Source: Mobula hypostoma
Taxonomy: Eukaryota
Length of the DNA: 64,000 bases
Direction of reading: 5' to 3'
Assembly: GCF_963921235.1 (NCBI RefSeq)
Contig: NC_086108.1
Coordinates: forward strand, 45,758,001-45,822,000
The notes beneath the pieces are model-generated. The model saw nothing but the letters and a program-made list of their open reading frames with translations. It did not search any database and was not told the origin of the DNA. This document shows positions 1 to 57,545 of the stretch, one piece after another. Both the position numbers and the translations under genes were made by a program. How positions within the stretch are numbered: position 1 is the stretch's first letter; each line of letters starts with the position of its first letter.

Positions 1-204
1 TCTGGCATCCCTATTGTGTAAAGGGACACTATGTTTTAGGAAGACCTTTCCAGAAAAGTCTGGCTACAGAGGCCTCACTCATCTGACTTGAGTACACACT
101 GCCACAGTCAACCCAGCCTATTTCATCTGCAGAAGGCAGAAGTGTATCTGGTGTTCTCATTTCAAAGGTCTCAGGCTATTCTTGCTTTAACCTCAACTTC
201 CACA
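1..204 (-). repeat. ERV 3' LTR (partial)
   Basis: Minus strand starts TGTGGAAG right after a purine tract; aligns by eye (about 75-80%) with 9945-10113, e.g. tccctattgtgtaa..ggaagacctttc..acagaggcct..cttgag.acacactgc. Confidence 0.8.
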
Positions 205-219
205 CTCCCTCTTCTTTAT
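205..219 (-). promoter_or_regulatory. Polypurine tract of the ERV
   Basis: Minus strand ATAAAGAAGAGGGAG immediately followed by the TG that starts the LTR. Confidence 0.7.
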
Positions 220-397
220 CCTGTACAAATCTTACGGAATCTCAGTAACACAGAATCTCCGAAACTCTGTGACGGTTTCATCAGGGACAGTTGTCTGTGG
301 GTATCAGGGATGTACGTGCAACACTCGTGGCTAATAGTGGCACAAGTATCATAGAAAGTCTAGTCTAGTTGATTTTCGGTGGGTGGGGGGGGGAACA

Positions 398-930
398 CAA
401 GTTCAAGTTTAATTGCTATTCAACCATACATGAATACCCGTGAATGTGGCCAAATGGAACAACGTTACTCTGGGTCCAAGGTGGAAAATACAGTATCTGC
501 GGTCACACACAGCACAAGGCACATATAGCACATATAAGGTAGCAAGCACGTATAAAATATCAGTAAAATATAGTGACAGACAAAAAGATAGTCCAAGTCC
601 CTGAGTCCATAAATGTTGCAGCAGTCTACAGTTGAACACAATACAACTTGTATTCTGCCAAGCGCACACTGAGGAGATGCACAGACTCCAGCTTGGACAA
701 CTCACCACACCACCCCAGGTGGAGCACTCTGACTCTGATGCCTCTCTCAAGGGCGGCTGTAAATAGGCGACACCACAGCCTGAGGCCTGGTCCTCACTAC
801 AACCGAGTTTGCACAGCTCCCTTTCCTTCTGCCAATAAATCAGTGAATTTGGACCCGACCCGCAGCATTCCACAGTAACAGTGTCCAGCAGGGTCTTGTG
901 ATCGCAAGAAAAGCAACTGAGATGATTACT
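398..930 (-). mobile_element. LINE 3'-tail-type repeat inserted into the ERV env 3' region
   Basis: Begins aagttcaagtttaattg on +, resembling the Rex-type tails elsewhere in the window (5770, 40230); interrupts env after the CC motif. Confidence 0.45.
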
Positions 931-1920
931 CGCTGTTAGACTGCACACTGCAACTGCTCTGATGCCTCTCTGACACAGGTAGCAGCACGATCTGCGCCAA
1001 ATTCAGCTCCTTCAGTTTCTCTGCCAATGAGCAACTCTCTGATGGCGTATCGATGGGCTGATTTGGCCACAGTGCCGATTGGCAGCATTTCGGCAGTAAT
1101 GTCATTGATGGCCTCGCTAGTGTCATTTAGTGCCAAGGCTGTGTTAGTAGCCAGTTTCTCCAGCAGTGCTGAGATCACGTTAATGCTCTCGTGTGCCAGT
1201 CCGGCAGGTTCCCAGAACAAGGACACTACAATCCAGAAATGCGCAGTCTCAGTAGTCCTTGGCTGGCATCTCCTCACAGTGAGATGCAGAGAGAGTGGGT
1301 AGGTGGTTCATCCATGGTACCAAGTAGCCCAGATAACACAAACTCCTGCATGGACTCAGATCAGGCCATGATCCCATTTAAGAAGGCATACTCCTGGCAG
1401 CCAGTAATAGGCCTGTTGGCCACATAGCCAGTAAGTACCGTTAACAGGATTTGGAGGGTCACCAGTAGTATATACTTTGCAAGTATTGCTGCCTATCTAA
1501 TCCCATTCCTTGATGGTTACCAGACCTCACCCCCTTTCCCATGAAGCAGCTATGGAGTTATGCAGTCATTGTAAGTAGGTTGATACTATCTCTCAAAACA
1601 GCTGCACTGGCCAGAGTCACTCCGATGGGCAGTTGTAAGCTCATTATCAAAGTAAACCATGGAATCAACCTCGCTACCATCCGGGGGTATAAACACAATG
1701 GCAATCCACTTTCTAAATGTATAGATGCTCTCTCGAGCACTGCCAACCATCTGACTGGTTATTACATGATGCATATCTATAACTACAGCAAAGGAGAGTG
1801 TGAAGGATATTCATGCAATGAGATACTTTTGCAATTTAGGTGGAGAACAGATGTTCAGATTACCCAACATATTAAATGCATAGTGATTGGCTAATAGTGA
1901 AGATCAAGAGCTCAGTCCAT
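930..1920 (-). pseudogene. env: ERV env remnant (SU + TM ectodomain), frameshifted
   Basis: Minus-strand peptides: NQSDGWQC (decayed CWxC, 1737-1760), PVNGTYWLCGQQAYYWLP and LCYLGYLVP (SU C-terminus, about 1315-1450), hydrophobic FWIVVSLF, heptad ISALLEKLATNTALALNDTSEAINDITAEM, ISD-like TVA..HRYA, and a frameshifted CC-T-x-V. Confidence 0.85.
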
Positions 1921-2064
1921 CAGTCGTTATCAACATTGTTCTTCTGGCCTCCTGATTCCTGGTCCGGTGGCACCACTGTCTTAACGTGCGAGGCATGTAT
2001 CCACATCAGCTGTCTTTGGACCTTTAAAGTGGTAGACATGGTCAGCAATACTTGAGATGGGGAC

Positions 2065-4098
2065 TTCCCAGTGAGGCTGCAGGCAATGAATGGACCTTCC
2101 CAGTGAGGCTCCGGGCAATGAATGGACCTTCCCAGTGAGGCTCCGGGCAATGAATGGACCTTCCCAGTGAGGCTCCGGGCAATGAATGGACCTTCCCAGT
2201 GAGGCTGCAGGCAATGAATGGACCTTCCCAGTGAGGCTCCGGGCAATGAATGGACCTTCCCAGTGAGACTCCGGGCAATGAATGGACCTTCCCAGTGAGG
2301 CTCCGGGCAATGAATGGACCTTCCCAGTGAGACTCCGGGCAATGAATGGACCTTCCCAGTGAGACTCCGGGCAATGAATGGACCTTCCCAGTGAGACTCC
2401 GGGCAATGAATGGACCTTCCCAGTGAGACTCCGGGCAATGAATGGACCTTCCCAGTGAGACTCCGGGCAATGAATGGACCTTCCCAGTGAGGCTCCGGGC
2501 AATGAATGGACCTTCCCAGTGAGACTCCGGGCAATGAATGGACCTTCCCAGTGAGACTCCGGGCAATGAATGGACCTTCCCAGTGAGGCTGCAGGCAATG
2601 AATGGACCTTCCCAGTGAGGCTCCAAGCAATGAATGGACCTTCCCAGTGAGGCTCCGGGCAATGAATGGACCTTCCCAGTGAGGCTCCGGGCAATGAATG
2701 GACCTTCCCAGTGAGGCTCCAAGCAATGAATGGACCTTCCCAGTGAGACTCCGGGCAATGAATGGACCTTCCCAGTGAGGCTCCAAGCAATGAATGGACC
2801 TTCCCAGTGAGGCTCCGGGCAATGAATGGACCTTCCCAGTGAGGCTCCGGGCAATGAATGGACCTTCCCAGTGAGACTCCGGGCAATGAATGGACCTTCC
2901 CAGTGAGACTCCGGGCAATGAATGGACCTTCCCAGTGAGACTCCGGGCAATGAATGGACCTTCCCAGTGAGGCTGCAGGCAATGAATGGACCTTCCCAGT
3001 GAGGCTCCAAGCAATGAATGGACCTTCCCAGTGAGGCTCCGGGCAATGAATGGACCTTCCCAGTGAGGCTCCGGGCAATGAATGGACCTTCCCAGTGAGA
3101 CTCCGGGCAATGAATGGACCTTCCCAGTGAGACTCCGGGCAATGAATGGACCTTCCCAGTGAGGCTGCAGGCAATGAATGGACCTTCCCAGTGAGGCTCC
3201 AAGCAATGAATGGACCTTCCCAGTGAGGCTCCGGGCAATGAATGGACCTTCCCAGTGAGGCTCCGGGCAATGAATGGACCTTCCCAGTGAGGCTCCAAGC
3301 AATGAATGGACCTTCCCAGTGAGGCTCCGGGCAATGAATGGACCTTCCCAGTGAGGCTCCGGGCAATGAATGGACCTTCCCAGTGAGACTCCGGGCAATG
3401 AATGGACCTTCCCAGTGAGACTCCGGGTAATGAATGGACCTTCCCAGTGAGGCTCCGGGCAATGAATGGACCTTCCCAGTGAGGCTGCAGGCAATGAATG
3501 GACCTTCCCAGTGAGGCTGCAGGCAATGAATGGACCTTCCCAGTGAGGCTCCAAGCAATGAATGGACCTTCCCAGTGAGACTCCGGGCAATGAATGGACC
3601 TTCCCAGTGAGGCTCCGGGCAATGAATGGACCTTCCCAGTGAGGCTCCGGGCAATGAATGGACCTTCCCAGTGAGGCTCCAAGCAATGAATGGACCTTCC
3701 CAGTGAGACTCCGGGCAATGAATGGACCTTCCCAGTGAGGCTGCAGGCAATGAATGGACCTTCCCAGTGAGGCTCCAAGCAATGAATGGACCTTCCCAGT
3801 GAGACGCCGGGCAATGAATGGACCTTCCCAGTGAGGCTCCGGGCAATGAATGGACCTTCCCAGTGAGACTCCGGGCAATGAATGGACCTTCCCAGTGAGG
3901 CTGCAGGCAATGAATGGACCTTCCCAGTGAGGCTCCAAGCAATGAATGGACCTTCCCAGTGAGACTCCGGGAAATGAATGGACCTTCCCAGTGAGACTTT
4001 GGGCAATGAATGGACCTTCCCAGTGAGACTTTGGGCAATGAATGGACCTTCCCAGTGAGACTTTGGGCAATGAATGGACTTCCCAGTGAGACTCCGGG
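2065..4098. repeat. Minisatellite, 32-bp unit, about 64 copies (TTCCCAGTGAGGCTCCGGGCAATGAATGGACC)
   Basis: Directly visible; a constant ~24 bp plus about 5 variants of an 8-bp segment (GCTCCGGG, ACTCCGGG, GCTGCAGG, GCTCCAAG, ACTTTGGG). Confidence 0.99.
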
Positions 4099-4269
4099 TA
4101 GTTCTTTCATCAGTAGGCTCTCACCAGTACCTAATCTCCCAGCTGGTAGATCTGACACTCTGCAGCCAGTATGATCTTCTAGGGTTCAAATACCTGTTGA
4201 TGGAAACCTTTAAGAGCTTATGTTAGTACAATACAATATTGCAGCATGCTTTCACTCATAATATAGATG

Positions 4270-4905
4270 GTGGTTGGTGGCATCCGTTAGTCTCGTGAGA
4301 CGATGGATCTGCGCCTGGAAAGTCTTGCTTCTATACCATCATGGTGAGGCAACACTGGAGTGTCCTCTTCAGGGCACAGGCCTGGGCAAGGTTGTATGGA
4401 AGACCGGCAATTGCCCATGCAGCAAGTCTCCTCTCTCCACGACACCAATGTTATCCAAGGGAAGGGCAAATGCTGATGCAGCTTGGCACCAGTGTCGTCA
4501 CAGAAGTTGCCAGAACGAGGTTGAAGGCAATGTCAGACTGCCTTAGGGACTCCAGCTCCGGATTTGTCCTCAGGGTTTACTCCCGAAGCCTTTCCCATGA
4601 GTGGGTATGGCTGCGAGGCAGCGGAGGTTTGAAATCAGAGCTTTCCCTCTCCTAAATGGACTGCCTTCCCAGGCTGACGAGATCCATTTACCCGAAGCAT
4701 TGGTTTTAAGGCGCCAGGACCCGCCTTCACCCCTTCTCCTGTCAGTAGAAACAGTTCCGCCGGGCTTAGAGGCTAAGCCACACGAGAAGGCCAGGAGTTG
4801 GACTTGGTTGTCAGAGGCTATTTGAGGCACATGCCATGAGGAGCACTTTTAGGCAGTGGGAGCTTGTCCCCACTACCACTCCGCCGCTTGACAACTTTAA
4901 GAACC
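4270..4905 (-). mobile_element. Non-autonomous RTE-type retroposon inserted in ERV integrase
   Basis: 10-bp TSD AATATAGATG (4260-4269, 4906-4915); non-coding; resembles RTE 5'UTR/3' end (family assignment from recall). Confidence 0.7.
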
Positions 4906-5764
4906 AATATAGATGTGCATCTGTTAATTAAAAAGACAGCGGTGACTGGCAGGCAGATGGGATGTCCCAAAGCTGTCTCATGCTGAGATAGGCCTGTTAA
5001 GCAGTGCATTATGATGAGGGCCAGTGGAAATACCTTTGACCACTTTAAGTCAGTCTCACCGTTCAGTTTAGCTGACCTGCATTTGAGGGGCTCTCTCTGT
5101 CTTTTAGCTGCCCCGTAAGATTGATGGAGTAAGGGCAGGTGAAACAATGCTTACACTATAAGGCTTTTGTTAGTTCCTATATAACCTTACCCATAAAGTG
5201 AGGACCATTATCATTGGAGACTCTCTTGGGGATCCCAAACCTAGAAATAAATGATTGTGATACAAATTATCAACAGTTACAGCATCACTTCTCTGAATCG
5301 GATAAACCTTCACCCGTGGAGATAACAAACAAATTAACAAGTGCATTATCACATCCTATACATTTTGGCAAGTGCATGAAGTCCATTTAGAGATGCACAG
5401 ATGAGCTCTTGGGGGAGGGCCCAGCAGCGGCAGATACCGGCAGTGTCTTTCAGAATTATGTGTTTGGCAAATCATACAGTTGTTGCTACTTTTCTTGCTA
5501 TGATCGAGAATCTCTCATTTTCAATTGTACCCACCATCCTTTATAGTCTTACACATAGTGTGATTTAGTCCCTGATGTTCTTTCAGTCTCTGACACAATG
5601 CATCACACTGTAATTGTGCAGAATTTGGAAAGTGTTGGCAGCCTGATGACGCTGGAGTGCTACTTGGGCATAAAGATCTGCTGTCACTGCCTTAGCAAAG
5701 AAGTCAGCTTGTTTATTCCCTCCAGTTATTTCATCCTCCCCGTTAGTATGAGCCACATAGTTAT

Positions 5765-6505
5765 AGAAAAAGTTCAAAGTAAACTTAATATCAAAGCACA
5801 TGTATGACACCATGTACAACCCTGAGATTGATTTTCTTGCAGGCATACTCAATAAAACCATAATGGAGTAATAACCATAACAGAGTCAATGAAAGACCAC
5901 ACCCACTTGTGCATCTAACCAGTGTGCAAAAGACATGAAACTGTGAAAATACAAAAAGAAAATAAGAAATAATAATAATAAAAAATAAGCAATCAATATC
6001 TAGAACATGAGATGAAGAGTCCTTGCAAGTGAACTTATAGGTTGTGGGAACGTTTCAATGATAGGGCAATTGCTATTGTTTGAAGTTATCCTCTGGTTCA
6101 AGGTCCTGATGGTTGATGGGTAATAACTGTCCTGACCTGGTGCTGTGAGTCCTGAGGTTCCTGTACCTTTTTCCTGAGGGCAGCAGTAAGAAGAGAGCAT
6201 ATGCTGGGTGGTGGGGGACCTTGATGATGGTTGTCGCTTTCCTGCGACAGCGTTTTGTGTGCATGTGCTTAATGGTGGGGAGGGCTTTACCCATGATGGA
6301 CTGGAACATATCCACTACTTTTTGTAGGATTTTCTATTAAAAGGCAATGGTGTGATGCAGCCAGTCAATATACTCTCCACTAGACATCTATAGAAGCGTG
6401 TCAAAATTTTAGATGTCATGCCAAGTCTTCACAAAGGAGGTAGAGGCGTGCTGGGCTTTCTTCATAAATGCACTTAACGCACTGAACCCAGGACAGATCC
6501 TCCAC
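5765..6505 (-). mobile_element. Rex1/Babar-type LINE 3' fragment
   Basis: ORF 6073-6315 RCRRKATTIIKVPHHPAYALFLLLPSGKRYRNLRT, the typical Rex ORF2 C-terminus. Confidence 0.8.
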
Positions 6506-6514
6506 GTCAGCCAC

Positions 6515-7515
6515 AGATGTGTCATCCTACCTTCAGAATACTTCTTCCTCTTTGGGATGTATATATCCTCTGCCTTCCAAATTGCTCCCAGAAATTCCAG
6601 CCACTGCTACTCTGCCGTTATCCCTGCTAGTGTTCCCTTCCAATCAATTTTGGCCAGCTCCTCTCTCATGTCTCTATAATTCCTGTTACTCTACTGTAAA
6701 ACTGATATATCTGTTCTCCTTCTCAAATTGCAGGGTGAATGCTATCATATTATAATCACTGCCCCTAAGGGTTCCTTTACCTTAAGCTCTCTAATCTATT
6801 CTGGTTCATTGCACAACACCCAATCCAGAATAGCTGTTCAACCACAAGCTGCTCTAAAAAGCCATATCATAGGCATTCTAGAAATTCCCCCTCTTGGGAT
6901 CAAGCACTAATTTTATCTACCTGCATATTGAAATCCCCCATGACTATCGTAACATTGCCCTTTTGACATGCAATTTCTATCTCCCATTGTAATTTGTAGA
7001 CCACATCATTACTACTGTTTGGAGGTCTGTATACGACTCCCATCAGGGTATTTTTACCCTTGAAGTTCCTTAACTCTACCCTCAACAATTCTTCATCTTT
7101 TAATCCGATGTCATCTCTTTCTAATGATTTGATTTCTATTTTTATCCACAGAGCTACCCCACCCCCTCTGCCTACCCGCCAGTCCTTTTGATGCAACGTG
7201 TATAAGCTCCCAGCTATAATTTTCTTTCGGGCATGATTCAGTGATGCCCACAATGTCATACGTGCCAGTCTCTAACTCTGCTACAAGATCATCTACCTTA
7301 TTCCGTGTACTGCATGCATTCAAGTACAGTATAACACCTTCAGTCCTGTATTCATCCTTTTCAATTTTGTCCCCTTTTACACTGCAACTCATCTAACTGA
7401 TTGCAATTTTGCCCTATCATCAGCCCCTCCTTGCTAGCAGTCTCACTATACGCTTCTTCTGTTTGTAAACCAACTATCCCATCCTCAGCACCATCACTCT
7501 GGTCCCCGTCCCATT
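6515..7515 (-). mobile_element. CR1 LINE fragment (APE endonuclease region)
   Basis: LYLNACSTRNKVDDL..DIVGITES; GRGGGVALWIK; GVVYRPPNS; VMGDFN. Confidence 0.9.
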
Positions 7516-7519
7516 CACA

Positions 7520-7980
7520 GTTTTACTTCACTCTCCCATATCACACAATCTGGGCTGTAATTTATCATTTATTTACACTAGTATTTATTAACCCTGTGTC
7601 CCTGCTCGTAAAGTTAATCCGGATAATTTTGAAAACATTTCACATGCGTTCTACATATTCATTAGCATCATTGTCTCCTGCCTGTCACTGTTTTTTATGC
7701 CAACCTACAGTGCAAGGGAAACATTTTCTTAGAGCTCCTGCTAGGTACATTTAAATCAACATTTCGCTCTCTCACTCTGCACCTCTCCACCTCCCATCTC
7801 CCATCGTGCAGCTGGGAACCGCTGTCTGTGGCAGGGCACTGGCTGATGCCAGTCTGACTGAGTACTCGAGAGGTGCCACTTGCTGAATCCATGCCTGGGG
7901 AAGGCAGGGGTGCAGCATCTAGTTCATCCTCAGACTCTGGACCTACTACTTTCTTTTCAAACACTGAGGTAGACACTATT
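7520..7980 (-). pseudogene. Probable ERV gag remnant
   Basis: Position between leader and pol; minus-strand KQ*QAGDNDANEYVERM*NVF resembles the capsid major-homology region. Confidence 0.45.
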
Positions 7981-8384
7981 ATCCTTTGCCTGTTCTTTCT
8001 GTGCTTTTTCCTTCTTCAACTTTTGCTCACCTTCTCTGCTTTTTAACAGGATTCATCATACTCGTTTTGCATTTCACATCTACATTAAACCAACACAGGC
8101 CACTCTACATTTTCCTTTCTATGACACATGTCTGCAGACATTCCACCCATACAATATACTTCACAGCATATTTAATCCTTTCTGGTGCACAATGTACAAA
8201 CGTGCATGCTACTGAAATCCTTTAGAGGTCCGGGACTGGGGACTCTCAGGCTATCATTCATGCACACGCAATCAGAACACACACACACACACACACATGC
8301 ATATACAAATGTACACAGACGCACACATTTTGGAGTTCCACTGATTTACAACACACTTAATGAATTTTCTTAACTTCATGTGAA

Positions 8385-9790
8385 CTCCAAGCTGGACCAC
8401 GGCAACACCTCATGTGGGCTCCATCCCAGACCATGGCAATCGTTTTCTGGGCTCCAACCTGGACCACAGCATCATCTCATGTGGGCTCCAACCCGTACCA
8501 TGGCAACAACTTGTGCGGGCTCCAATCTGGACCATAGCAACACCTCATCCAGGCTCTAACCCAGATGGCAACACCTCGTCCAGGCTCCCACCCAAGTGGC
8601 AATACCTCATCCAGGCTCCAACCCGGATGGCAACGCCTCGTCCAGGCTCCAACCCAGATGGCAACACCTCATCCAGGCTCCAACCCAGATGGCAATACCT
8701 CATCCAGGCTCCAACCCAGATGGCAACACCTCATCCAGGCTCCAACCCAGATGGCAACACCTCATCCAGGCTCCAACCCAGATGGCAACACCTCATCCAG
8801 GCTCCAATCTAGATGGCAACACCTCATCCAGGCTCCAACCTGGACAATGGTACAGCTCATCCAGGCTCCAACCCAGATGGCAACGCCTCATCCAGGCTCC
8901 AACCCAGATGGCAACGCCTCATCCAGGCTCCAACCCAGATGGCAATACCTCGTCCAGGCTCCAACCCGGATGGCACCACCTCGTCCAGGCTCCAACCCAG
9001 ATGGCAATACCTCGTCCAGGCTCCAACCCGGATGGCAATACCTCGTCCAGGCTCCAACCCAGATGGCAACACCTCGTCCAGGCTCCGACCCAGATGGCAA
9101 CACCTCGTCCAGGCTCTAACCCAGATGGCAACACCTCGTCCAGGCTCCCACCCAAGTGGCAATACCTCATCCAGGCTCCAACCCAGATGGCAACACCTCA
9201 TCCAGGCTCCAACCCAGATGGCAATACCTCGTCCAGGCTCCAACCCAGATGGCAACACCTCATCCAGGCTCCAACCCAGATGGCAACACCTCGTCCAGGC
9301 TCCAACCTGGATGGCAACACCTCATCCAGGCTTCAACCCGGATGGCAATACCTCATCCAGGCTCCAACCCAGATGGCAACACCTCGTCCAGGCTCCAACC
9401 CAGATGGCAACACCTCGTCCAGGCTCCAACCCAGATGGCAACACCTCATCCAGGCTCCAACCCAGATGGCAACGCCTCATCCAGGCTCCAACCCAGATGG
9501 CAACACCTCATCCAGGCTCCAACCCGGCTGGCAACACCTCATCCAGGCTCCAACCCGGCTGGCAACACCTCGTCCAGGCTCCAACCCGGCTGGCAACACC
9601 TCGTCCAGGCTCCAACCTGGATGGCAACACCTCGTCCAGGCTCCAACCCGGATGGCAACACCTCGTCCAGGCTCCAACCCGGATGGCAACACCTCGTCCA
9701 GGCTCCAACCCAGATGGCAACACCTCGTCCAGGCTCCAACCCAGATGGCAACATCTTGTGTGAGCTCCAACCTGGCTCATGGCAACCTCA
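8385..9790. repeat. Minisatellite, 31-bp unit (CCAGGCTCCAACCCAGATGGCAACACCTCAT), about 39 homogeneous copies flanked by diverged ~33-bp units
   Basis: Directly visible; homogeneous core about 8549-9752, diverged units at 8385-8548 and 9753-9790; lies in the ERV 5' leader. Confidence 0.98.
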
Positions 9791-9799
9791 CCTTTTTTT

Positions 9800-10136
9800 A
9801 AACACTGCAGCTTTCCTATGTTGGCGACTAAGTTGGTGTACCTTGACTACAGGAGGAAATTTGCATTCCAGCAACAGACATAGTCCCTTGTTCAATTATT
9901 GTTGTTGGGTATGCTTCCCATCCTTCTGTTATCTTGTCTGTCCATGGCACTCCCTATTGTGTAATGGGATGCTATGTTTGAGGAAGACCTTTCTGGTGAA
10001 GTCTCACCACAGAGGCCTGACTTGCCTGGCTTGAGAACACACTGCTACAATCAGTGCAGCCTGTCTTGTCTGCAGCAACCAGTGATGCTCTGGTGGTCCC
10101 AATTGAAATGTCTCACTTGACAACAATTACCCCAGG
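9800..10136 (-). repeat. ERV 5' LTR (U3 side cut by a Rex LINE)
   Basis: 9945-10113 matches 3-172; inner boundary uncertain (candidate end ..CCAACA on minus at 9819). Confidence 0.7.
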
Positions 10137-11400
10137 CTATCCGCAACCTCCACAATTGTGTCGGTATATTGAGCACAGGATAGATCCTCCGAGATGTTGA
10201 CACGCAGGAACTTGAAACCATTCACCATTTCCACTGCCGATCCTTCGATAAGGATTGGTGAATGTTCCCTCATCCCCCTCCCTGAAGTCCACAATCAATT
10301 CCTTGGTCTTACTGACATTAAGTGCAAGATTATTGTTACGACCCCACTCAACCAGCTGATCCACCTCACTCCTGTACATCTTCTCATCACCATTTGAGAC
10401 AGTTTCGTTATCGTCAAATTTACAGATGAGCTATAGCTGGCCACACAGTCACAGGCGTAGAGAGAATAGAGCAGAGATCTACACATGTATCCTTGAGCTG
10501 TGCAGGTGTTAATTGTCAGCGAGAGGAGATGTTATTTCTGATCTGCAGACTGTGGTCTCTCGATGAGGAAGTCAAAGATCCAGTTGCAGAGGGAGGTACA
10601 GAGACCCAGGTTTTGGAGCTTGTTGATTAGTACTGAGGGTATGACGTTGTCAGACTCTGAGCTGTAGTCAATAAACAGCAACCTGACGTAGGTATTGCTG
10701 TCATCTAGGTGTCTGTGGGCGAGTGGAGAGCCGCTGAGATGACATCTGCTGTAGACCCGTTGTGGCGGTGGGTAAAATGCAACGAGTCCAGGTCCTTGCT
10801 TTGGCAGGAGTTAATTCTGGCCACAACCAACATCTCAAAGCTTTTCACAGCAGTGGATTTGAGTGCAACTGGACGATAGCTGGTGAGGCAGTTATGAATC
10901 TCAGGGTTGCATATAGTGACATATATGTAGTTTGATAATAAAGTTACTTTGAATTTTGTGCTTTGAACCCTGCTCCTCTTGGGCACTGGTATGATTGATG
11001 CCCTTTTGAAGCAGGTGGGAGCCCCCAGCTGCAGCAGTAAGAGATTGAATATATCCTTGAACACTCCAGCCAGTCAGATGGCACAGGTTTTTAGTGCCCA
11101 GATACAACATCAGGGTCTGACACCTTGCGAGGGTTCACCCTCTCGAAAGACTGTTCTCTCGTCGGCCTCTGAAATAGCTCTTAGGGTCGCCACATGCTGT
11201 GGAGAATCACACAGGTATGGTTTTATTCTTCCTTTCTAAACATGCAACAAGGACGCAAAGGCATTGAACTCATCTGGCTGTGAAGCATCGTAGCTATTTA
11301 TGATGGTAGGTTTTGCCTTGTAGGAAGTAGCGGCCTGCAAACCCTGCCAGAACTGACGTGCATCCAATGCTATCTCTAGCTTCGACTATAATTGTCTTTT
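10137..11400 (-). mobile_element. Rex1/Babar-type LINE RT fragment
   Basis: FKDIFNLLL..PTCFKRASIIPVPK..YRPVAL; YRSEVDQLVEW..NNLALNVSKTKELIVDFR. Confidence 0.88.
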
Positions 11401-20459: not shown

Positions 20460-22040
20460 AGTCATAGTCATAATCATAGTCATACTTTATTGATCCTGGG
20501 GGAAATTGGTTTTCATTACAGTTCCACCATAAATAATAAATAGTAATAAAACCATAAATAGTTAAATAGTAATATGTAAATTATGCCAGGAAATAAGTCC
20601 AGGACCAGCCTAGGCTCAGGGTATCTGACCCTCCAAGGGAGGAGTTGTAAAGTTTGATGGCCACAGGCAGGAATGACTTCCTATGACGCTCTGCGTTGCA
20701 TCTCAGTGGAATGAGTCTCTGGCTGAATGTATTCCTGTGCCCACCCAGTACATTATGTAGTGGATGGGAGACATTGACCAAGATGGCATGCAACTGAGAC
20801 CACCACAGACTCGTAGAACATCCTCAGCATCATCCGGCAGATGTTAAAGGACCTCAGTCTCCTCAGGAAATAGAGACGGCTCTGACCCTTCTTGTAGACA
20901 GCCTCAGTGTTCTTTGACCAGTCCAGTTTATTGTCAATTCATATCCCCAGGTATTTGTAATCCTCCACCATGTCCACACTGAACCCCTGGATGGAAACAG
21001 GGGTCACCAGTACCTTAGCTCTCCTCAGGTCTACCACCAGCTCCTTAGTTTTTTTCACATTAAGCTGCAGATAATTCTGCTCACACCATGTGACAAAGTT
21101 TCCTACCGTAGCCCTGTACTCAGCCTCATCTCCCTTGCTGATGCATTCAACTATGGCAGAGTCATCCGAAAACTTCTGAAGATGACAAGACTCTGTGCAG
21201 TAGTTGAAGTCTGAGGTGTAAATGGTGAAGAGAAAGGGAGACAAGACAGTCCCCTGTGGAGCCCCAGTGCTGCTGATCACTCTGTCGGACACACAGTGTG
21301 GCAAGCACACATACTGTGGTCTGCCAGTCAGGTAATCAAGAATCCATGACACCAGGGAAGCATCCACCTGCATCGCTGTCAGCTTCTCCCCCAGCAGAGC
21401 AGGGTGGATGGTGTTGAACACACTGGAGAAGTCAAAAAACATGACCCTCACAGTGCTTGCTGGCTTGTCCAGGTGGGTGTAGACATGGTTCAGCAGGAAG
21501 ACGATGGCATCTTCAACTCCTAGTCGGGGCTGGTAGGTGAACTGGAGGGGATCTAAGTGTGGCCTGACCATAGGCCGGAGCAGCTCCAGAACAAGTCTCT
21601 CCAGGGTCTTCAAGATGTGGGATGTCAATGCCACCGGTCTGTAGTCATTGAGGCCGCTGGGGCGCGGCGTCTTCGGCACAGGGACGAGGCAGGACGTCTT
21701 CCACAGCACAGGAACCCTCCGGAGCCTTAGGCTCAGGTTGAATACATGGCGAAGTACTCCACATAGCTGAGGGGCACAGGCTTTGAGCACCCTGGTACTG
21801 ATACCATCTGATCCTGCAGCCTTGCTTGGGTTGAGACGTTTCAGCTGTCTTCTCACCTGTTCAGCTGTGAAGCCCACGGTGGTGGTTTCGTGTGAGGAGG
21901 GGGTATAGTCATGAGAGCAGGGTGGGGGACTGTGAGGAGGGGTAGGAGGGGAGAGTGGAATATGTGTTGGTTGGGGGCCGACAACAGATGGCTCATGTGG
22001 GGGATGGGCAGGGGCCACAATGTCAAATCTGTTAAAGAAT
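20460..22040 (-). mobile_element. Rex1/Babar LINE, 5'-truncated, with a largely open RT
   Basis: ORF 20939-22216: KAAGSDG, DYRPVALTS, FFDFSSVFNT, GAPQGTVLSPFLF, KFSDD; (CTATGA)n tail at 20460-20483. Confidence 0.93.
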
Positions 22041-22409
22041 AGGTTATATGTCAATGATTTGGAAGACAGAATTGATGGTTTGTGGCCATGTTCGGGGATG
22101 ATACAAAATAGGTGGAGAGGCAGGTGGTGTTGAGGACAGAGGGAGTCTGCAGAAAGACTTCGACAGATGAGAATGGTTAAAAAATGGCAGATGGAATACA
22201 GTGTCGGGAAGTGCATGGTCAGGAACCTTGGTAGAAGTTTTCTAAGCGGGCAGTAAATTCAGAAATCAGAGATGCAAAGGGACTAGGGAGTTCTTGTGTA
22301 GGTTTCCCTAAAGGTTAGTTTGCAGGTTGAGTTGGTGGTATAGAAGGCAAATGCAATGTAACCATTCATTTCGAGAGGACTAGAATATAAAAGCAAGGAT
22401 GTAATGCCG

Positions 22410-29059: not shown

Positions 29060-29400
29060 GACAGTGTTAGAACGGGCAGTGTTAGAACGGGCAGAGTTAG
29101 AACGGGCAGTGTTAGAACGGGCAGAGTTAGAACGGGCAGTGTTAGAACGGGCAGTGTTAGAACGGGCAGAGTTAGAACGGGCAGTGTTAGAACGGGCAGT
29201 GTTAGAACGGGCAGAGTTAGAACGGGCAGTGTTAGAACGGGCAGAGTTAGAACGGGCAGTGTTAGAACGGGCAGTGTTAGAACGGGCAGAGTTAGAACGG
29301 GCAGTGTTAGAACGGGCAGTGTTAGAACGGGCAGAGTTAGAACGGGCAGTGTTAGAACGGGCAGTGTTAGAACGGGCAGTGTTAGAACGGGCAGAGTTAA
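29060..29400. repeat. 15-bp tandem repeat (CAGWGTTAGAACGGG), about 23 copies
   Basis: Directly visible; two variants (T/A); 29101-29220 is identical to 29221-29340. Confidence 0.98.
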
Positions 29401-30790: not shown

Positions 30791-31840
30791 TAAGATCCAC
30801 AAGATCATATTTGTTGTTCAAAACTCTTTCTGATTAAACTATCACCGTTGTGTCAGCTGATCTGTTTCTCCATCAGACGCCCGTGTCTCACATCTATACA
30901 GGTTTCACAGCCAACTTGATGACAACTGTCGGGACATCTGTTCATCTTCATGCAGGATTGCTTTTGGTTCTAATAATCTATAAAACAAATGAAAATGTAA
31001 ATATTTCTGTAAATGCAATTCCACGACCTAGAAGTTAGATGAGCCCTGCTGATAGGTACTGCGTGGCCCAATTTTTTAGCCTTTGTCTCTACAGTTTCTG
31101 TATCATCAGTAAATCTGGCCAGTTCCCAGTTACATTGGGTATCCATATTTATTTATAGAATGATCAGAACTGTAGGGAACTTCCTCATCTGTAACTTTAT
31201 ATACTTGTTTTTGTTTACTTCTGTATCCAAAATTATTGTGGCTTGTATTTAAATTGGAAATCTTTCCTGCAAAATGTTTTGAAAGCTTAAATGTATTACG
31301 TCTTAGAGTATCATAGAACTATGTTGTGCCAACCTTTTAACCTACTCCAATATCAATCTAACCATTCCCTCACACATAGCCCAGCATTTTTATTTCATCT
31401 ATGTGCCTATCTAAGTCTCTTAAATGTCCCTAATGTCTCTGCCTTACTAATCACCATCCCTCGCAGTCATTCTATGCACTTATCGCACTTGGTGTAAAAA
31501 AAAAACTACCTCTGACATCTCCCTATGCTTTCCCCCAATCACCTTAAAGTTATGCCCTCTCATATTGGCCATTGCTGCTCTGGGAAGAAGGTGCTGGCTA
31601 TTCCCTCTATGCCTTTCTCTATCTTGTACACTTCTATCAAGTCACCTCTCAACCCCTGTCACTCCAAAGTGAAAAGCTGTAGCTCACTGAACCTATCTCC
31701 ATAAGACAGCATCCTGGTAAGTCTCCTCTGCAACCTCTCGAAAGCTTCCACATCCTTCCTGCAATGAGGTGACCAGACCGAACAGAATACTCCAAGTGTC
31801 TAGATCTGCAATATTACTTCACAGCTCTTGAACTCAATCC

Positions 31841-34386
31841 CATGGCTAACGAGTTGGAAGTGCAAATCTGCAGAGAGATAGCAGGCAACTGCAGAAAACA
31901 TAAAGTTGTGGTGGTAGGGGATTTTAATTTTCCATATATTGATTGGGTCTCCCATACTGTTAGGGGTCTAGATGGTTTAGAGTTTGTAAAATGTGTTCAG
32001 GAAAGTTTTCTAAATCAATATATAGAGGGACCAACTAGAGGGGATGCAATATTGGATCTCCTGTTAGGAAACGAGTTAGGACAAGTGACAGAAGTCTGTG
32101 TAGGGGAGCACTTTGGTTCCAGCGATCATAAGACCATTAGTTTCAACTTGATCATGGACAAGGATAGATCTGGTCCTAGGGTTGAGGTTCTTAACTGGAA
32201 GAAGGCCAAATTTGAAGAAATGAGAAAGGATCTAAAAAGCGTGGATTGGGACAGGTTGTTCTCTGGCAAGGATGTGATCGGTAGGTGGGAAGCCTTCAAA
32301 GCAGAAATTTTGAGAGTGCAGAGCTTGTATGTTCCTGTCAGGATTAAAGGGAAGGTGAATAGGAATAAGGAACCTTGGTTCTCAAGGGATATTGCAACTC
32401 TGATAAAGAAGAAGAGGGAGTTGTATGACGTGTATAGGAAGCAGGGAGTAAATAAGGTGCTTGAGGAGTATAAGAAGTGCAAGAAAATACTTAAGAAAGA
32501 AATCAGGAGGGCTAAAAGAAGACATGAGGTTGCCTTGGCAGTCAAAGTGAAGGATAATCCAAAGAGCTTTTACAGGTATATTAAGAGCAAAAGGATTGTA
32601 AGGGATAAAATTGGTACTCTTGAAGATCAGAGTGGTCGGCTATGTGCGGAACCAAAGGAAATGGGGGAGATCTTAAATAGGTTTTTTGCGTCTGTGTTTA
32701 CTAAGGAAACTGGCATGAAGTCTATGGAATTAAGGGAAACAAGTAGTGAGATCATGGAAACTGTACAGATCGAAAAGGAGGAGGTCCTTGCTGTCTTGAG
32801 GAAAATTAAAGTGGATAAATCCCCGGGACCTGACAGGGTGTTCCCTCGGACCTTGAAGGAGACTAGTGTTGAAATTTCAGGGGCCCTGACTGAAATATTT
32901 AAAATGTCGCTGTCTACAGGTGAGGTGCCGGAGGATTGGAGAGTGGCTCATGTTGTTCTGTTGTTTAACAAAGGATCGAAAAGTAATCCGGGAAATTATA
33001 GGCCAGTAAGTTTAACGTCGGTAGTAGGTAAGTTATCGGAGGGAGTACTAAGAGACAGAATCTACAAGCATTTGGATAGACTGGGACTTATTAGGGAGAG
33101 TCAACATAGCTTTGTGCGTGGTAGGTCATGTTTGACCAATCTATTGGAGTTTTTCGAGGAGGTTACCAGGAAAGTGGATGAAGGGAAGGCAGTGGATATT
33201 GTCTACATGGACTTCAGTAAAGCCTTTGACAAGGTCCCGCATGGGAGATTAGTTAGGAAAATTCAGTCGCTAGGTATACATGGAGAGGTGGTAAATTGGA
33301 TTAGACATTGGCTCGATGGAAGAAGCCAGAGAGTGGTGGTAGAGAATTGCTTCTCTGAGTGGAGGCCTGTGACTAGTGGTGTGCCACAGGGATCAGTGCT
33401 GGGCCCATTGTTATTTGTCATCTATATCAATGATCTGGATGATAATGTGGTAAATTGGATCAGCAAGTTTGCTGATGATACAAAGATTGGAGGTGTAGTA
33501 GAAAGTGAGGAAGGTTTTCAGAGCCTGCAGAGGGACTTGGACCAGCTGGAAAAATGGGCTGAAAAATGGCAGATGGAGATTAATACTGACAAGTGTGAGG
33601 TATTGCACGTTGGAAGGACAAACCAACGTAGAACATACAGGGTTAATGGTAAGGCACTGAGGAGTGCAGTGGAACAGAGGGATCTGGGAATACAGATACA
33701 AAATTCCCTAAAAGTGGCGTTACAGGTAGATAGGGTCGTAAAGAGAGCTTTTGGTACATTGGCCTTTATTAATCAAAGTATTGAGTATAAGAGCTGGAAT
33801 GTTATGATGAGGTTGTGTAAGGCATTGGTGAGGCCGAATCTGGAGTATTGTATTCAGTTTTGGTCACCAAATTACAGGAAGGATATAAATAAGGTTGAAA
33901 GGGTACAGAGAAGGTTTACAAGGATGTTACCAGGACTTGAGAAACTCAGTTACAGAGAAAGGTTGAATAGGTTAGGACTTTATTCCCTGGAGCGTAGAAG
34001 CATGAGGGGAGATTTGATAGAGGTATATAAAATTATGATGGGTATAGATAGAGTGAATGCAAGCAGGCTTTTTCCACTGAGGCAAGGGGAGAAAAAAAAC
34101 CAGAGGACATGGGTTTAGGGTGAGGGGGGAAAAGTTTAAAGGGAACATTAGGGGGGGGCTTCTTCACACAGAGAGTGGTGGAAGTATGGAATGAGCTGCC
34201 AGACGAGGTGGTAAATGCGTGTTCTTTTTTAACATTTAAGAATAAATTGGACAGATACATGGATGGGAGGTATATGGAGGGATATGGTCCGTGTGCAGGT
34301 CAGTGGGACTAGGCAGAAAATGGTTCGGCACAGCCAGGAAGGGCTAAAAGGCCTGTTTCTGTGCTGTAGTTTCTATGGTTTCTATG
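31841..34386 (+). mobile_element. Young 5'-truncated CR1 LINE
   Basis: Long open ORF2 followed by CR1 3'UTR and (TTCTATGG)-type tail. Confidence 0.95.
31842..34118 (+). CDS. CR1 ORF2 segment (C-terminal part of APE endonuclease + reverse transcriptase), 758 aa; retroelement-encoded, N-terminally truncated
   Basis: VVGDFNFP, LDLLL, SDH, KSPGPD, NYRPVSLTS, YMDFSKAFDKVPH, GVPQGSVLGP, FADD; frameshift only at the A-run near 34092. Confidence 0.9.
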   Translation: MANELEVQICREIAGNCRKHKVVVVGDFNFPYIDWVSHTVRGLDGLEFVKCVQESFLNQYIEGPTRGDAILDLLLGNELGQVTEVCVGEHFGSSDHKTISFNLIMDKDRSGPRVEVLNWKKAKFEEMRKDLKSVDWDRLFSGKDVIGRWEAFKAEILRVQSLYVPVRIKGKVNRNKEPWFSRDIATLIKKKRELYDVYRKQGVNKVLEEYKKCKKILKKEIRRAKRRHEVALAVKVKDNPKSFYRYIKSKRIVRDKIGTLEDQSGRLCAEPKEMGEILNRFFASVFTKETGMKSMELRETSSEIMETVQIEKEEVLAVLRKIKVDKSPGPDRVFPRTLKETSVEISGALTEIFKMSLSTGEVPEDWRVAHVVLLFNKGSKSNPGNYRPVSLTSVVGKLSEGVLRDRIYKHLDRLGLIRESQHSFVRGRSCLTNLLEFFEEVTRKVDEGKAVDIVYMDFSKAFDKVPHGRLVRKIQSLGIHGEVVNWIRHWLDGRSQRVVVENCFSEWRPVTSGVPQGSVLGPLLFVIYINDLDDNVVNWISKFADDTKIGGVVESEEGFQSLQRDLDQLEKWAEKWQMEINTDKCEVLHVGRTNQRRTYRVNGKALRSAVEQRDLGIQIQNSLKVALQVDRVVKRAFGTLAFINQSIEYKSWNVMMRLCKALVRPNLEYCIQFWSPNYRKDINKVERVQRRFTRMLPGLEKLSYRERLNRLGLYSLERRSMRGDLIEVYKIMMGIDRVNASRLFPLRQGEKKNQRTWV

Positions 34387-34954: not shown

Positions 34955-37900
34955 TGTAGGGTAACATATTTGGTGGAAACATACATAATTCCCAACCACT
35001 GACATTGAGTTGGGATCTCGCTTTAAGAGACTGTTCTGACATGACAACATAATTATGTAAAGAATTTTTAATGTGCTTGGAGTTCAGTTTTTTTGGTGTT
35101 CAATGAATGAGTTGCTACGGCTTTTCTGAAACACAAAACGCTTCCACTACCTTATTTGCAAAAACTCCTGATGCTCTAGGACGATTCCAGAGTTATTGAA
35201 CATGTCGGCCAATGTGATTGCTTTGAAACTGCTAGAGTTTTGGGAACAAAATTCCTTCGCTTGGTTTGTACAGTGGAGGCTCAATTTGCACTTCGAGAAA
35301 TCTCCACCGACAACACCAGATATTTCTTTGTGGTCGTGTTGCTCAGTAACTCCGCGGCTACGAGAGTGGTGAGTCTGCTCGAGCACCCCCTGAACACGAT
35401 AAATACCGATCGCTGAAAACTCCTCTTTTACCGACTTTTGGACTTTCAGAGTCTGAGCGTGTGAAACTTTTGCTCTCCTTACCCAGTCTCGGTGATGCTA
35501 AGCTGTCGGAGCAAATGGACCACATGTCACCTCTCCTGGGAAATCCCCAGCCTTGTTTTATTTTAAAAGAACTTTTCATGCAGCAAATGCCTGATCAAGT
35601 TCACATAGTCCTCATGAATGCACCTGTGAATGACTATAGGGAGCTTGCTAAAATGGCTGATAGTCTATACTCAGCCAGGCAGTGATGCATAATTCATCCT
35701 CCTCTCTCTATCTCAATGAACCTGGTCAGCAAGGCCCCCAGCATAAGGCCACCCACACCTGCAAAACAGATGAGCCAGACCTGTGCTTTCACCACACCCG
35801 TTTTGGCAGTAATACGAGGAAGTGCCGACTGCCTTACAGCTTCAACAGGACCAGTGCATCGGGACATCAGAGGTCTGCGAACGGCTGTCAGGGTTATCTA
35901 CTATTCATTACGGACACCCTTTCAGGGTGACACTTCTTGTGTGACACAGATGCTCAAGTGAGTGTGCCGCCAGCATCGCCTATTGATGAGATGGCAAAGA
36001 GCGATGAAACCTGGCTGGTGGCCGCCAACGGCTGCAAGAACCAGACTTATGGGACATGATGGGTGTTGCTCCACTTCAGTGGATGTCATTACGCATGGGC
36101 CTCATCCTGGCTAAAGTGCCCGGACCTCTGCTCGGTGCAGATTACCTGCGTGCCCGAGGATTGTTGTCAATCTTAAGAACTGCTGGCTTGTGGATGTCAA
36201 AGATTTAGGGTCGTTATCCTGCTGCCCCAGTAATTTCCCCACAATGACTGTGTCAAGCACATGGACCACCGCATGTGATTTTACTCGACTGCTGGGCGAA
36301 TTCCCAGACCTCACCAAGCCCACATTCTCCAAGACAGTCACAAAACATGGGGTATTGAGCGCCACATTCCCACAACTGACCCGCCAGTCCATGCCTGCAC
36401 ACGTAGACTGGACCCAGAAGTACTGGCAAATGCGGAGGCTGAGTTTGCCAACACGGTAGGACTTGGCATTGTATGTCAGTCGAATAGCCCCTGGGCTTCG
36501 CCGCTCCATATGGTCTCTAAATCTGATAGTGGTTGCTACCCATGTGACAATTACCAACTCCTTACTGAAGTTACCACCCCTCAATCGCTACCCAGTCCCA
36601 CGCAACCAAGACTTTTCAGCATATTTAGCTGGAAAGTCAATTTTTTACAAAGTTGATTTGTTTAGTGGCCTGTGTGCTTGGAGGACACTCCCAAGACAGC
36701 TGTGATAACCTCACTTGGCCTCTTTGAGTTTCTGCACATGCTGTTTGGGCTGAAAAATGCGGCACAGACTCTGTACTAAAAGACTTAGATTTTCTTTTTG
36801 TGTACCTGGTTGACATACTCGTCACCAGTGTGTCCAAATGTGAACACACATCTCATCGCCACTCATTTTTCGAGTACTTAAGCCAACATGGGTCGATTAT
36901 TAATCCTGCTAAATGCCAGTTTGGATTGTCAACCATTGACTTTCTTGGCAATTGCATCTCCGCAGAAGGTGCAAAACCCCTCCCATCAAAAGTAGCCGCT
37001 ATTATGGATTTCTCACCATCCCGCACTACAAAAAATCTACAGGAGTTTTTGGCACCGCTTCATTCTGCAGGCTGCTGAGCTTGTGCTTCCACTGTATAGT
37101 GAACTTAAAGGCAGTACCCCCAATCAAGTGCTTGACTGATACCAAATGTGCCCTTTCCAATGCAGCCCCACAGGCACACCGGCTCCCCAACACAGCCACA
37201 GACTGAAGCGTCAGTACTAACAGCTATGCTGTTGGTGCTGTACACAAACACTTGGTCAGAGGCGTGTGGCAGCCACTCACCTCTTCAGCCAGCACCTCTG
37301 TCCCTCCTCGAAAGGAAGTACAGCATGTTTGACCATGAGCTTCTCGGGCTCTATCTGGCTATCTGCCATTTTTCTTTTCTTTTGGAGAGTCACCATTTCA
37401 CGGCGTTCGTTGACCACAAATCCCTCGTTTATGTGATGGCCAAAATATCAGACCCTTGGTCTGCATGTCAGAGTTCACAACTAGTGTACGACATATCAAG
37501 GGGGAAAGTAATGCTGTGGCTGATCGCCTCTCATGGTGAACCACTGAGGCCGTACACGTGGTCAACCATAGAGGCCGTACACATGGTCAGCCACTGAGGC
37601 CGTACACATGGGGGTTGACTATGCCAGTATGTCAGCCGACCAAGCTGCTGACCCAGAGGTCTCAGCTGACAGAACAGCAGCCATGACCCTGCAGTTGGCT
37701 GACATTAAGCTCGGGGAAGCTGGGGTGTCTCTCCTGTGCGATGTCTCAACCAGTCGTCCTCGCCCCATCGTGCCGGCAAACTGGAGGAGACTGTTTTTAA
37801 CTCCATACGTGGCCTTTTGCATCTGGGCCAGAAGGCCTCGCAGAAACTGATTGCACTGAAGTTGAAGTGGCAAAGCCTTTGAAAGGATATGCGTAATTGG

Positions 37901-39111
37901 AGAGCGGCCTGTGTAGAGTGCCAGTGGGCAAAATTTGACCACCCTGCTCAGGTGCCATTGGCACCTTCTGAGGTCCTTGAGTGATGGTTTGGCCATGTCA
38001 ACGTGGACCTTGCTGGTCCTCTCTTCCTCCTCCTCGCAGTTTCACGCATCTTCTTACCAGGTGGCCAAAGGTCATCCACCTAGCAACGGCGATGGCTGCA
38101 GATGTGGCCTGGGCATTCATCAGCATCCGGGTTGCTCAGTTTGGTGCCCCCATCTGATAGTTCCCCTGAAAGTGGTCCCCAATTCACATCAGATCTCGGG
38201 GCTGCAATGGCCCAGAAACTTGGCGTTAGGCTACAACACACCATGGCTTATTCACCCGCAGTCCAGTAGCCTAAGTGAGTGGTTTCACTACTGCTTACAG
38301 GCAGCTCTGAGGGCTTCCCAGACCGATGAGTGTTGGCATGATCGTCTCCCATAGACTCTTTTGGGAGACGGTGAGTTGGTATACAAACAGCTGTTACGAG
38401 TGCCAGGTGATTTCATTCCTGATGCCACAACTGCCGAGTTGGTCTCTCAGCAGCATTCTATCCTCCTCAGTAAATTCAATTTCTTTTCAACTATTCCTAC
38501 CTCCCATCATGGCGAACAGCATTCTTGGGTCCCTGTTGACCTCCATTCTGCCTTGTTTGTTTTCGCCTGCCATGGTGCACACAAACGTCCCCTTAGGTCC
38601 CTTTATGATGACCCATTCCACACTTTGGAATGGGGAGAAAAGACTTTTATCATAGATAAGAGGGATAAACCTGAATGTATTTTGGTAGATCATCCTAAAC
38701 TGGCCCACCAAGATTTAGAGGATTCTGCTGCCATGCCCCTGCTGTCGTGACATGATCATGAGTGTGTCAACACACCTCTGGATCCGCCAGAGGCACCTGC
38801 TGTCCCTCCACCCATGGATCAAAGGACTATGGCCTACCGGCTTGTCCGAGCTCCTGACAGGCTCACAACGCAGTTTTAGTGATGTCTGAGGAGGCCTGTG
38901 TAGGTTAACGTAACTGGTGGAAACGGACATAATTTACAATCACAGACGTAGTGTCGGGGTTTCACTTTAAGAGGCCAGTCTGATGTGATGACGTAATTAT
39001 GTGAAGGGGTTTTAGCGCACTTGGAGTTCAGCTTTTGGTTTTCACTAATGAGTTGCTACGGCTTTCCTGAAATATAAAATGTCTCCACTGTTTTATTTGC
39101 GAAAACCTATA
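34955..39111 (+). mobile_element. Ty3/Gypsy LTR retrotransposon, full span, decayed
   Basis: About 210-bp LTRs at 34955-35165 and 38899-39111 (TGTAGG..gagttgctacggctt..ttatttgc.aaaac); gag LKLLEFWEQN; PR FLCDTDAQVS; RT RYPVP, YLVDIL; RH ERKYSMFDHELL; IN HVNVDLAGP, LYDDPF. Confidence 0.92.
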
Positions 39112-56894: not shown

Positions 56895-57545
56895 AAGCTC
56901 CAGCAAAAGCTCCCTCTTCCTCCACTCGCTCCAGCAAAAGCCTCAACCCTCCCTGCTCCCTCTGCCCCCACTCGCTCCGGTAAAAGCCTCAACCCTCCCT
57001 GCTCCCTCTGCCCCCACTCGCTCCGGTAAAAGCCTCAACCCTCCCTGCTCCCTCTGCCCCCACTCGCTCCGGTAAAAGCCTCAACCCTCCCTGCTCCCTC
57101 TGCCCCCACTTGCTCCAGCAAAACCCACAACCCTCCCTGCTCCTTCTTCCCCCACTTGCTCCAGCAAAAGCCTCAACCCTCCCTGCTCCCTCTGCCTCCA
57201 CTTGCTCCAGTAAAAACATCAAATCCTCCCTGCTCCCTCTGCCCCCACTTGCTCCAGTAAAAGCCTCAACCCTCCCTGCTCCCTCTGCCCCCACTTGCTC
57301 CAGTAAAAGCCTCAATCCTCCCTGCTCCTTCTTCCCCCACTCGCTCCAGCAAAAGCCTCAACCCTCCCTGCTCCCTCTGCCCCCACTTGCTCCAGCAAAA
57401 CCCTCAACCCTCCCTGCTCCTTCTTCCCTCACTCGCTCCAGCAAAAGCCTCAACCCTCCCTGCTCCCTCTGCCTCCACTTGCTCCAGTAAAAGCCTCAAC
57501 CCTCCCTGCTCCCTCTGCCCCCACTCGCTCCTGTAAAAATATCAA
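56895..57545. repeat. 46-bp C-rich minisatellite, about 14 copies
   Basis: Unit AAAGCCTCAACCCTCCCTGCTCCCTCTGCCCCCACTCGCTCCRGTA, directly visible. Confidence 0.97.

Follow-up and report, generated by a model that had tools for sequence, protein, structure and literature searches.

A single-locus 32-bp minisatellite derived from the integrase GPY/F codons of a decayed LTR element in Mobula hypostoma

The human genome holds 7,276 element-derived tandem repeats, amounting to 23% of minisatellites, and 1,597 of these repeats are associated with ERVs, ERV internal regions included (Ahmed and Liang 2012, PMC3389668). In the parts of that survey drawn on here, most human element-derived tandem repeats are without flanking direct repeats and two standard models account for 6% of them. 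Locus-specific birth inside a retroelement copy has likewise been described for the mouse minisatellite Ms6-hm, which lies in a MaLR LTR, and for human Alu-derived minisatellites (as cited in Paco et al. 2019, PMC6947457). The GPY/F motif gives its name to an integrase module that class I retroviruses and many Ty3/Gypsy elements carry in canonical form (Llorens et al. 2008, PMC2577118; Vargiu et al. 2016, PMC4724089, both as far as the sections drawn on go). A literature search that may have been limited in coverage, with few subscription journals, returned no published account of the present locus or of a GPY/F-derived minisatellite. Here we describe an array that is very probably a single-locus minisatellite of about 64 copies of a dead integrase segment. 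A single local duplication likely set it off, gain and loss of blocks has likely maintained its uniformity since, and its open reading frames are likely due to chance.

Like the human element-derived repeats in the covered parts of that survey, the array is confined to a single locus, has a unit that is a segment of its host element, appears to have formed by local duplication after insertion and is mostly without flanking direct repeats (PMC3389668). It is unlike human ERV-internal repeats in its length, as these have 2–4 units in the 30 of 322 HERV rows plus two others that were covered, versus 64 here; relative to those rows, 64 units from a coding segment would lie at the long end of the range. 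The same parts of the survey do not map repeat units to integrase motifs, as is done here. With Ms6-hm and the Alu-derived cases, as summarized by Paco et al., the array shares a locus-specific birth inside a retroelement copy, but those minisatellites come from a non-coding LTR or SINE whereas this one comes from former integrase-coding sequence (PMC6947457). LTR12-type internal repeats, whose copy number varies between loci, resemble a second, 31-bp array in the leader of the same element and its 33–35 bp sisters, and are unlike the integrase array, for which the element family offers no tandem precursor (PMC3389668, in the parts covered).

The array lies in a window of 64,000 bp, within an element on the minus strand that runs from ~10,140 to 33 bp before the window and is bounded by LTR-like repeats (Table 1). 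Terminal direct repeats are present in both this copy and the paralog L025, and both match the MLV-type integrase C-terminal domain (PF18697) above cut-off with a canonical GPY/F motif. The window's C-terminal stretch also matches MLV integrase in PDB (2m9u, E 1.5e-4). Upstream, retroviral integrase cores match the decayed core region in a PDB search (best E 6e-4), and PF00665 rve matches it at 5102-5401 (E 3e-06, below the curated cut-off). This region is preceded by what we take, from its motifs, to be an RNase H-like remnant. The label env-like is likewise our assumption from position and motifs; env, gag and RT gave no library matches in the window copy or in L025 (Pfam, and PDB for env).

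Table 1. Coordinates of the element and its arrays in the window
Feature	Positions	Strand	Evidence or remarks
3' LTR-like repeat	1..350	-	begins 33 bp before window; paralog L025 has a 640-bp direct repeat, each copy of which it matches
Decayed env-like region with heptad-like stretch	900..1900	-	position; common to paralogs at 67-74%
Downstream half of integrase C-terminal domain, QVLLT..WIHASHVK	1920..2063	-	PF18697 MLVIN_C, E 4e-08, above cut-off
ATG-led 709-aa candidate repeat ORF, 32-aa period	1981..4110	-	ATG at 4110, context CTG-ATG-A
32-bp minisatellite, 63.6 units, 9 types	2064..4098	-	from integrase GPY/F-motif codons; locus-unique; single-copy or absent in 34 paralogs
Integrase sequence upstream of motif, QLGD*VLVR, with stops	4099..4269	-	80-89% to 39 genomic copies among matches listed
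636-bp high-copy insertion in integrase gene	4270..4905		missing from paralogs; very high contig depth
Decayed integrase core and zinc-finger region	4906..5762	-	68-75% identity to paralogs
LINE-type fragments inserted in element	5763..7566	-	PF03372 endonuclease at 6900-7271; paralogous elements without them here
Second minisatellite, 31 bp, ~39-45 units, 5' leader of same element	8376..9786	+	tandem repeat and frame analysis
Remnant of 5' LTR-like repeat	9901..10140	-	208 bp align to the 3' repeat at 76.9% identity

The element is broken by stops, frameshifts, the 636-bp insertion and the LINE fragments. Together with the 23% divergence of its LTR-like repeats this bears out the view, taken in the initial annotation, of a provirus that is long dead and heavily decayed. 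The 636-bp insertion is flanked by a 10-bp perfect direct repeat resembling a target-site duplication (4260-4269 and 4906-4915). A contig from a related sample, organism F below, stops matching exactly at 4269, and the insertion may therefore postdate that split. A first look gave 1,132 candidate family members, and at least 39 paralogs at 80–89% identity are among the matches listed; judged from these copies the family is large and old. In both L025 (2074-8917) and the window (1-10140) we observed integrase and env-like sequence between LTR-like repeats and no RT or gag match, and this may be an internally deleted, non-autonomous family. As in class I (gamma/epsilon-like) integrases, a canonical GPF motif sits in an MLV-type C-terminal domain; unlike the functional class I module, the module here is dead and its codons are only repeat material (PMC2577118, PMC4724089). 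By "class I ERV-like" we mean resemblance rather than placed membership, and GPY/F alone cannot place the element because, according to the sections of these papers drawn on, the module also occurs in Ty3/Gypsy elements.

Tandem Repeats Finder reports the array at 2064-4098 on the minus strand as 63.6 copies of a 32-bp unit with 95% adjacent match and no indel score, a structure that is far beyond chance. Anchor matches number 64 and are spaced at 32 bp in 62 of 63 cases and at 31 bp in one. The 63 whole units fall into nine types, four of which make up 57, and with seven variable columns and a mean pairwise difference of 5.1% they give a measured content to the initial description of the array as near-homogeneous. 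The flanking peptides reported earlier, QLGD*VLVR..NYPESHWE and QVLLT..WIHASHVK, are present in the translation on either side. The accompanying statement that each unit encodes EPHWEGPF holds for the core HWEGPF, read in 62 of 64 repeats, and has to be narrowed for the full motif, which occurs in 30; the residues before WEGPF are EPH in these 30, ESH in 20, QPH in 8, KSH in 3, ASH in 1, and two end units are degenerate. Within any single frame the HWEGPF motif recurs only every third unit. The length of 2,035 bp is given by the assembly and by a depth ratio of ~66 in run X2 (organism A), which may be the source sample.

We searched the 3.5-Gb genome with a 25-base pattern spanning the unit junction, allowing at most one mismatch, and all 62 matches fell inside the array. 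With a less strict pattern, built to match the unit core in any tandem pair, 61 of 62 matches lay in the array and the remaining one was an unrelated pair; both patterns miss diverged duplications. The initial annotation had named copies of the unit outside this ERV family as evidence of insertion from elsewhere, and with 62 of 62 junction matches in this array its origin in place stands. The term satellite birth, used at the same time, does not apply, as the feature is a single-locus minisatellite rather than a satellite family.

The unexpanded state is visible in the paralogs. We compared 34 distinct copies (11 and 23 from two sets, one duplicate dropped) out of the 1,132 candidates and found a second 32-bp unit in none, one unit in 20 and no unit at the 9-mismatch limit in 14. 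The spacing between flank anchors is 39 bp in 14 paralogs, the commonest value, and 37–41 bp in 23; among the other 11 it is shorter in seven, 44 bp in one, and much longer without a second unit in three. In the window this spacing is 2,055 bp, or 39 + 63 x 32, meaning a gain of exactly 63 units. The unit has a mean identity of 81% (21–29 of 32) to the colinear single segment in the 14 paralogs with 39-bp spacing, exceeding 70% in 13 of them, which is similar to the 78% measured for the flanks in the same comparison. L025 has a single reading of the motif, in the same frame as the remainder of its PF18697 domain. We count the array as element-derived because its unit is 81% like the colinear paralog segment and both of its flanks are element sequence; it consists of head-to-tail units within 10–100 bp, has at least 70% likeness to the element, occupies one locus and contains variant blocks, as is characteristic of an element-derived single-locus minisatellite. 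The locus-unique junction, the unexpanded paralogs, the colinear segment and the exact gain of 63 x 32 bp uphold the earlier proposal of in-situ amplification, and at the level of sequence they show that the array arose in place from integrase GPY/F codons.

Tandem arrays may be mis-sized in assemblies, which is the point in favor of reading the length of this array as an assembly artefact. The ordered variant structure with nine unit types speaks against this, as does the depth ratio of ~66 in a run whose flank contig shows 0 differences over 536 bp. The companion idea, that a dispersed satellite family supplied the unit by insertion, is countered by the absence of the unit elsewhere in the genome and by its colinearity with a single-copy paralog segment. 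We consider either explanation extremely unlikely.

The sequence of events that we propose begins with an old multi-copy LTR element carrying an MLV-type integrase C-terminal domain, which lies here in heavily decayed form. One 32-bp segment, single-copy in paralogs, is tandemly repeated at this locus only. The first duplication would have come about by replication slippage or unequal exchange, and no clear direct repeat or hairpin explains the site. Direct repeats of 5–10 bp flanking the single-copy precursor, as in the Haber-Louis model, are mostly missing among 14 paralog copies: at lag 32 the longest exact match has a mean length of 2.3 bp and reaches 5 in one copy, figures to be read with the decay of the paralogs, which might mask a flanking repeat. 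A hairpin was also rejected as the trigger: on either strand, stretches of three units fold less well than their shuffled counterparts (z +1.1 to +2.3). The present sequence would look the same whether the duplication was of exactly 32 bp or was slightly longer and followed by a small loss.

Subsequent growth has left a pattern among the unit variants. The block BDC occurs five times versus 0.41 expected, a count that 0 of 20,000 shuffles reach, and six-unit blocks also recur (p = 0.002). The rarest unit types and the one-base deletion are located at the right-hand end. Multi-unit duplication with a spared end is the expected product of slippage, unequal exchange and gene conversion in minisatellites. 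From the ordered variant blocks we infer that expansion and turnover proceeded through multi-unit duplication and gene conversion with the right-hand end spared, and that block duplication has continued in a long-dead element.

Contigs carrying other species labels bear on the age of the array. Contigs from four runs were aligned to the left flank plus 1.5 units and contigs from four runs to the right flank plus 1.8 units; no contig spans the junction with 31 bases to either side of it, and none of the summed contig depths given here amounts to a copy number. In organism A (X2) a flank contig with 0 differences over 536 bp runs into the first unit, and depth is 865 at the junction versus 13 in the flank. 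In organism B (X7), with 18 differences in 802 bp of flank (~2%), a contig enters the junction and its joint goes back one period; depth is 707 versus 45, a ratio of ~16. Organism D (X11), whose flank is ~5% different, has loose ends bearing the junction and a go-back joint, with a depth of 99 at the junction versus 6-7.5 in the flank (ratio 13-16) and of 87-104 over the last units on the right. Organisms E and F have unit-like contigs of low depth, and in organism G (X16) the unit junction is without cover. A 984-base contig of organism F (X15) matches 1367-2060 with 66 differences in 694 and is unlike the window beyond that; we dropped it as an unexpanded orthologue, as there is no such contig at the right flank and unit-like contigs lie over 4040-4078 at a depth of 18.9.

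The junction thus occurs in organisms B and D, and probably under more labels. Orthology of the relatives' units would follow from the unit being unique to one locus in the source genome. The plain reading is that the array was born before the split of lineages now at least 5% apart and has turned over since, its uniformity coming from this turnover; the present length may be younger than the birth. A burst that was recent and confined to one species, in a provirus already long dead, would account for the four variants that together represent 57 of 63 units and appear repeatedly as identical blocks, and the higher junction-to-flank depth ratio in organism A (~66, versus ~16 in B and 13-16 in D) suggests that the present length may be recent, although summed contig depth does not equal copy number. 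The junctions in B and D, whose flanks differ at 18 of 802 positions and by ~5%, and those suggested in E and F stand against it: they point to an old birth even if the current length is young. We therefore regard a recent burst as very unlikely. The initial annotation had offered recent expansion or ongoing homogenisation; ongoing turnover fits the variant blocks in a dead element, whereas a recent birth is at odds with the junction in two other species labels.

The three long minus-strand frames through the array had also been singled out. The array contains 0 stop triplets on the minus strand versus 128 on the plus strand, and the stop-to-stop frames are 728, 734 and 692 aa rather than the 650-725 aa first given, all of them open as claimed. 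The period is not divisible by 3, so each frame passes all 32 triplet positions and the three open frames amount to one test: a unit that is stop-free at its 32 circular positions would leave all three frames open together. This test is passed on this strand by 28% of 100,000 shuffled units (44% on either strand), by 18% of 60,308 real 32-mers of the window (33% on either strand) and by 269 of 2,013 32-mers from the element's own sense strand (13%, below the shuffle figure). The neighboring 31-bp array does likewise, and the frames are less notable than had been suggested. Among single changes of the unit, 13 of 96 create a stop, and the chance of nine stop-free substitution alleles is ~0.27. 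We conclude that the long stop-free frames are likely a chance by-product.

The competing idea is a young de novo gene, in which the out-of-phase array of integrase codons would now be transcribed and translated from the ATG at 4110 into a 709-aa repeat protein cycling through three GPY/F frames, with stops excluded by selection and the frame kept open across related species. Consistent with it are the ATG-led ORF itself, its sense orientation within the element, the LTR-like remnant upstream of it, the absence of any unit variant that creates a minus-strand stop and the apparent presence of the array in related species. Against this, 13–28% of such units are stop-free anyway, the ORF is separated from the LTR remnant by two insertions and the second array, and with a 32-bp period every gain or loss of a unit shifts the downstream frame, unlike in coding VNTRs. 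Neither a frame-preserving unit nor stop depletion in excess of the 13–28% null was found. None of the 8,000 candidates of 389–1,241 aa that were scored is a protein relative of the ORF at E <= 1e-5. The initial suggestion that the array is raw material for a de novo repeat protein, though possible, thus drew no support from the search for relatives. For the flank downstream of the array (900-2064) no RNA data set was listed, a blank that weighs neither for nor against expression. Pfam matches on it (PAAR, CENP-B_N, SCA7) were discarded as summed repeat scores with 0 passing stretches. In the remainder of the window (12,000-64,000), 45 of 50 ORFs of at least 110 aa contain no host protein domain, with only retroelement-type or low-complexity matches, in a scan that does not cover small exons. 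A de novo gene is accordingly very unlikely from these data.

Open frames are also seen in the 31-bp leader array, 4 kb from the 32-bp array, whose plus-strand frames are 413, 316 and 304 aa. Ten other loci (L081-L090), picked from search matches rather than at random, carry related leader arrays with periods of 33–35 bp and 4 to 238 units, and 9 of the 10 adjoin sequence matching the element's leader or LTR-like flank. Four contain stop-free stretches, of 717, 477, 423 and 324 aa. The largest, L081, has 238 units over 8.3 kb. The 5' leader of the element is thus a possible minisatellite hot spot and a possible natural series for following turnover. In another copy, L029, a 16-bp x 17 array at 8232-8507 interrupts an LTR-like repeat, a third site of array birth in the family.

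As a measure of the setting, 40 arbitrarily placed 10-kb samples (400 kb) contain six minisatellites, two of them longer than 1 kb; in one sample, L126, a 27-bp array of at least 229 units occupies 3874-10000. Further minisatellites in the window lie at 29062-29399 (15 bp x 22.5), 56909-57538 (46 bp x 13.7) and 63378-63484 (25 bp x 4.3). The window also holds long intact LINE ORF2 pieces with RVT_1 matches at 31773-34118 (+, 781 aa) and 20939-22258 (-, 439 aa), which are probably young insertions, and an ORF cluster at 36111-38750 with RVT_1 and RT_RNaseH matches, a decayed Gypsy-type pol with a 25-bp x 3 repeat at 37532-37611.

The mechanism is not new, and the array is best described as a clean, traceable but ordinary element-derived minisatellite. 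It cautions that, in arrays of this kind, long ORFs in all three frames come cheaply, and it would be surprising only if translation of the array ORF were proven. Its value is as a tidy teaching case of minisatellite birth, in which many unexpanded paralogs still show the precursor, the gain is exactly 63 units and relatives bracket the age. Taken with the leader arrays that recur in this element family, it offers a small natural series in which the birth and turnover of minisatellites could be measured.
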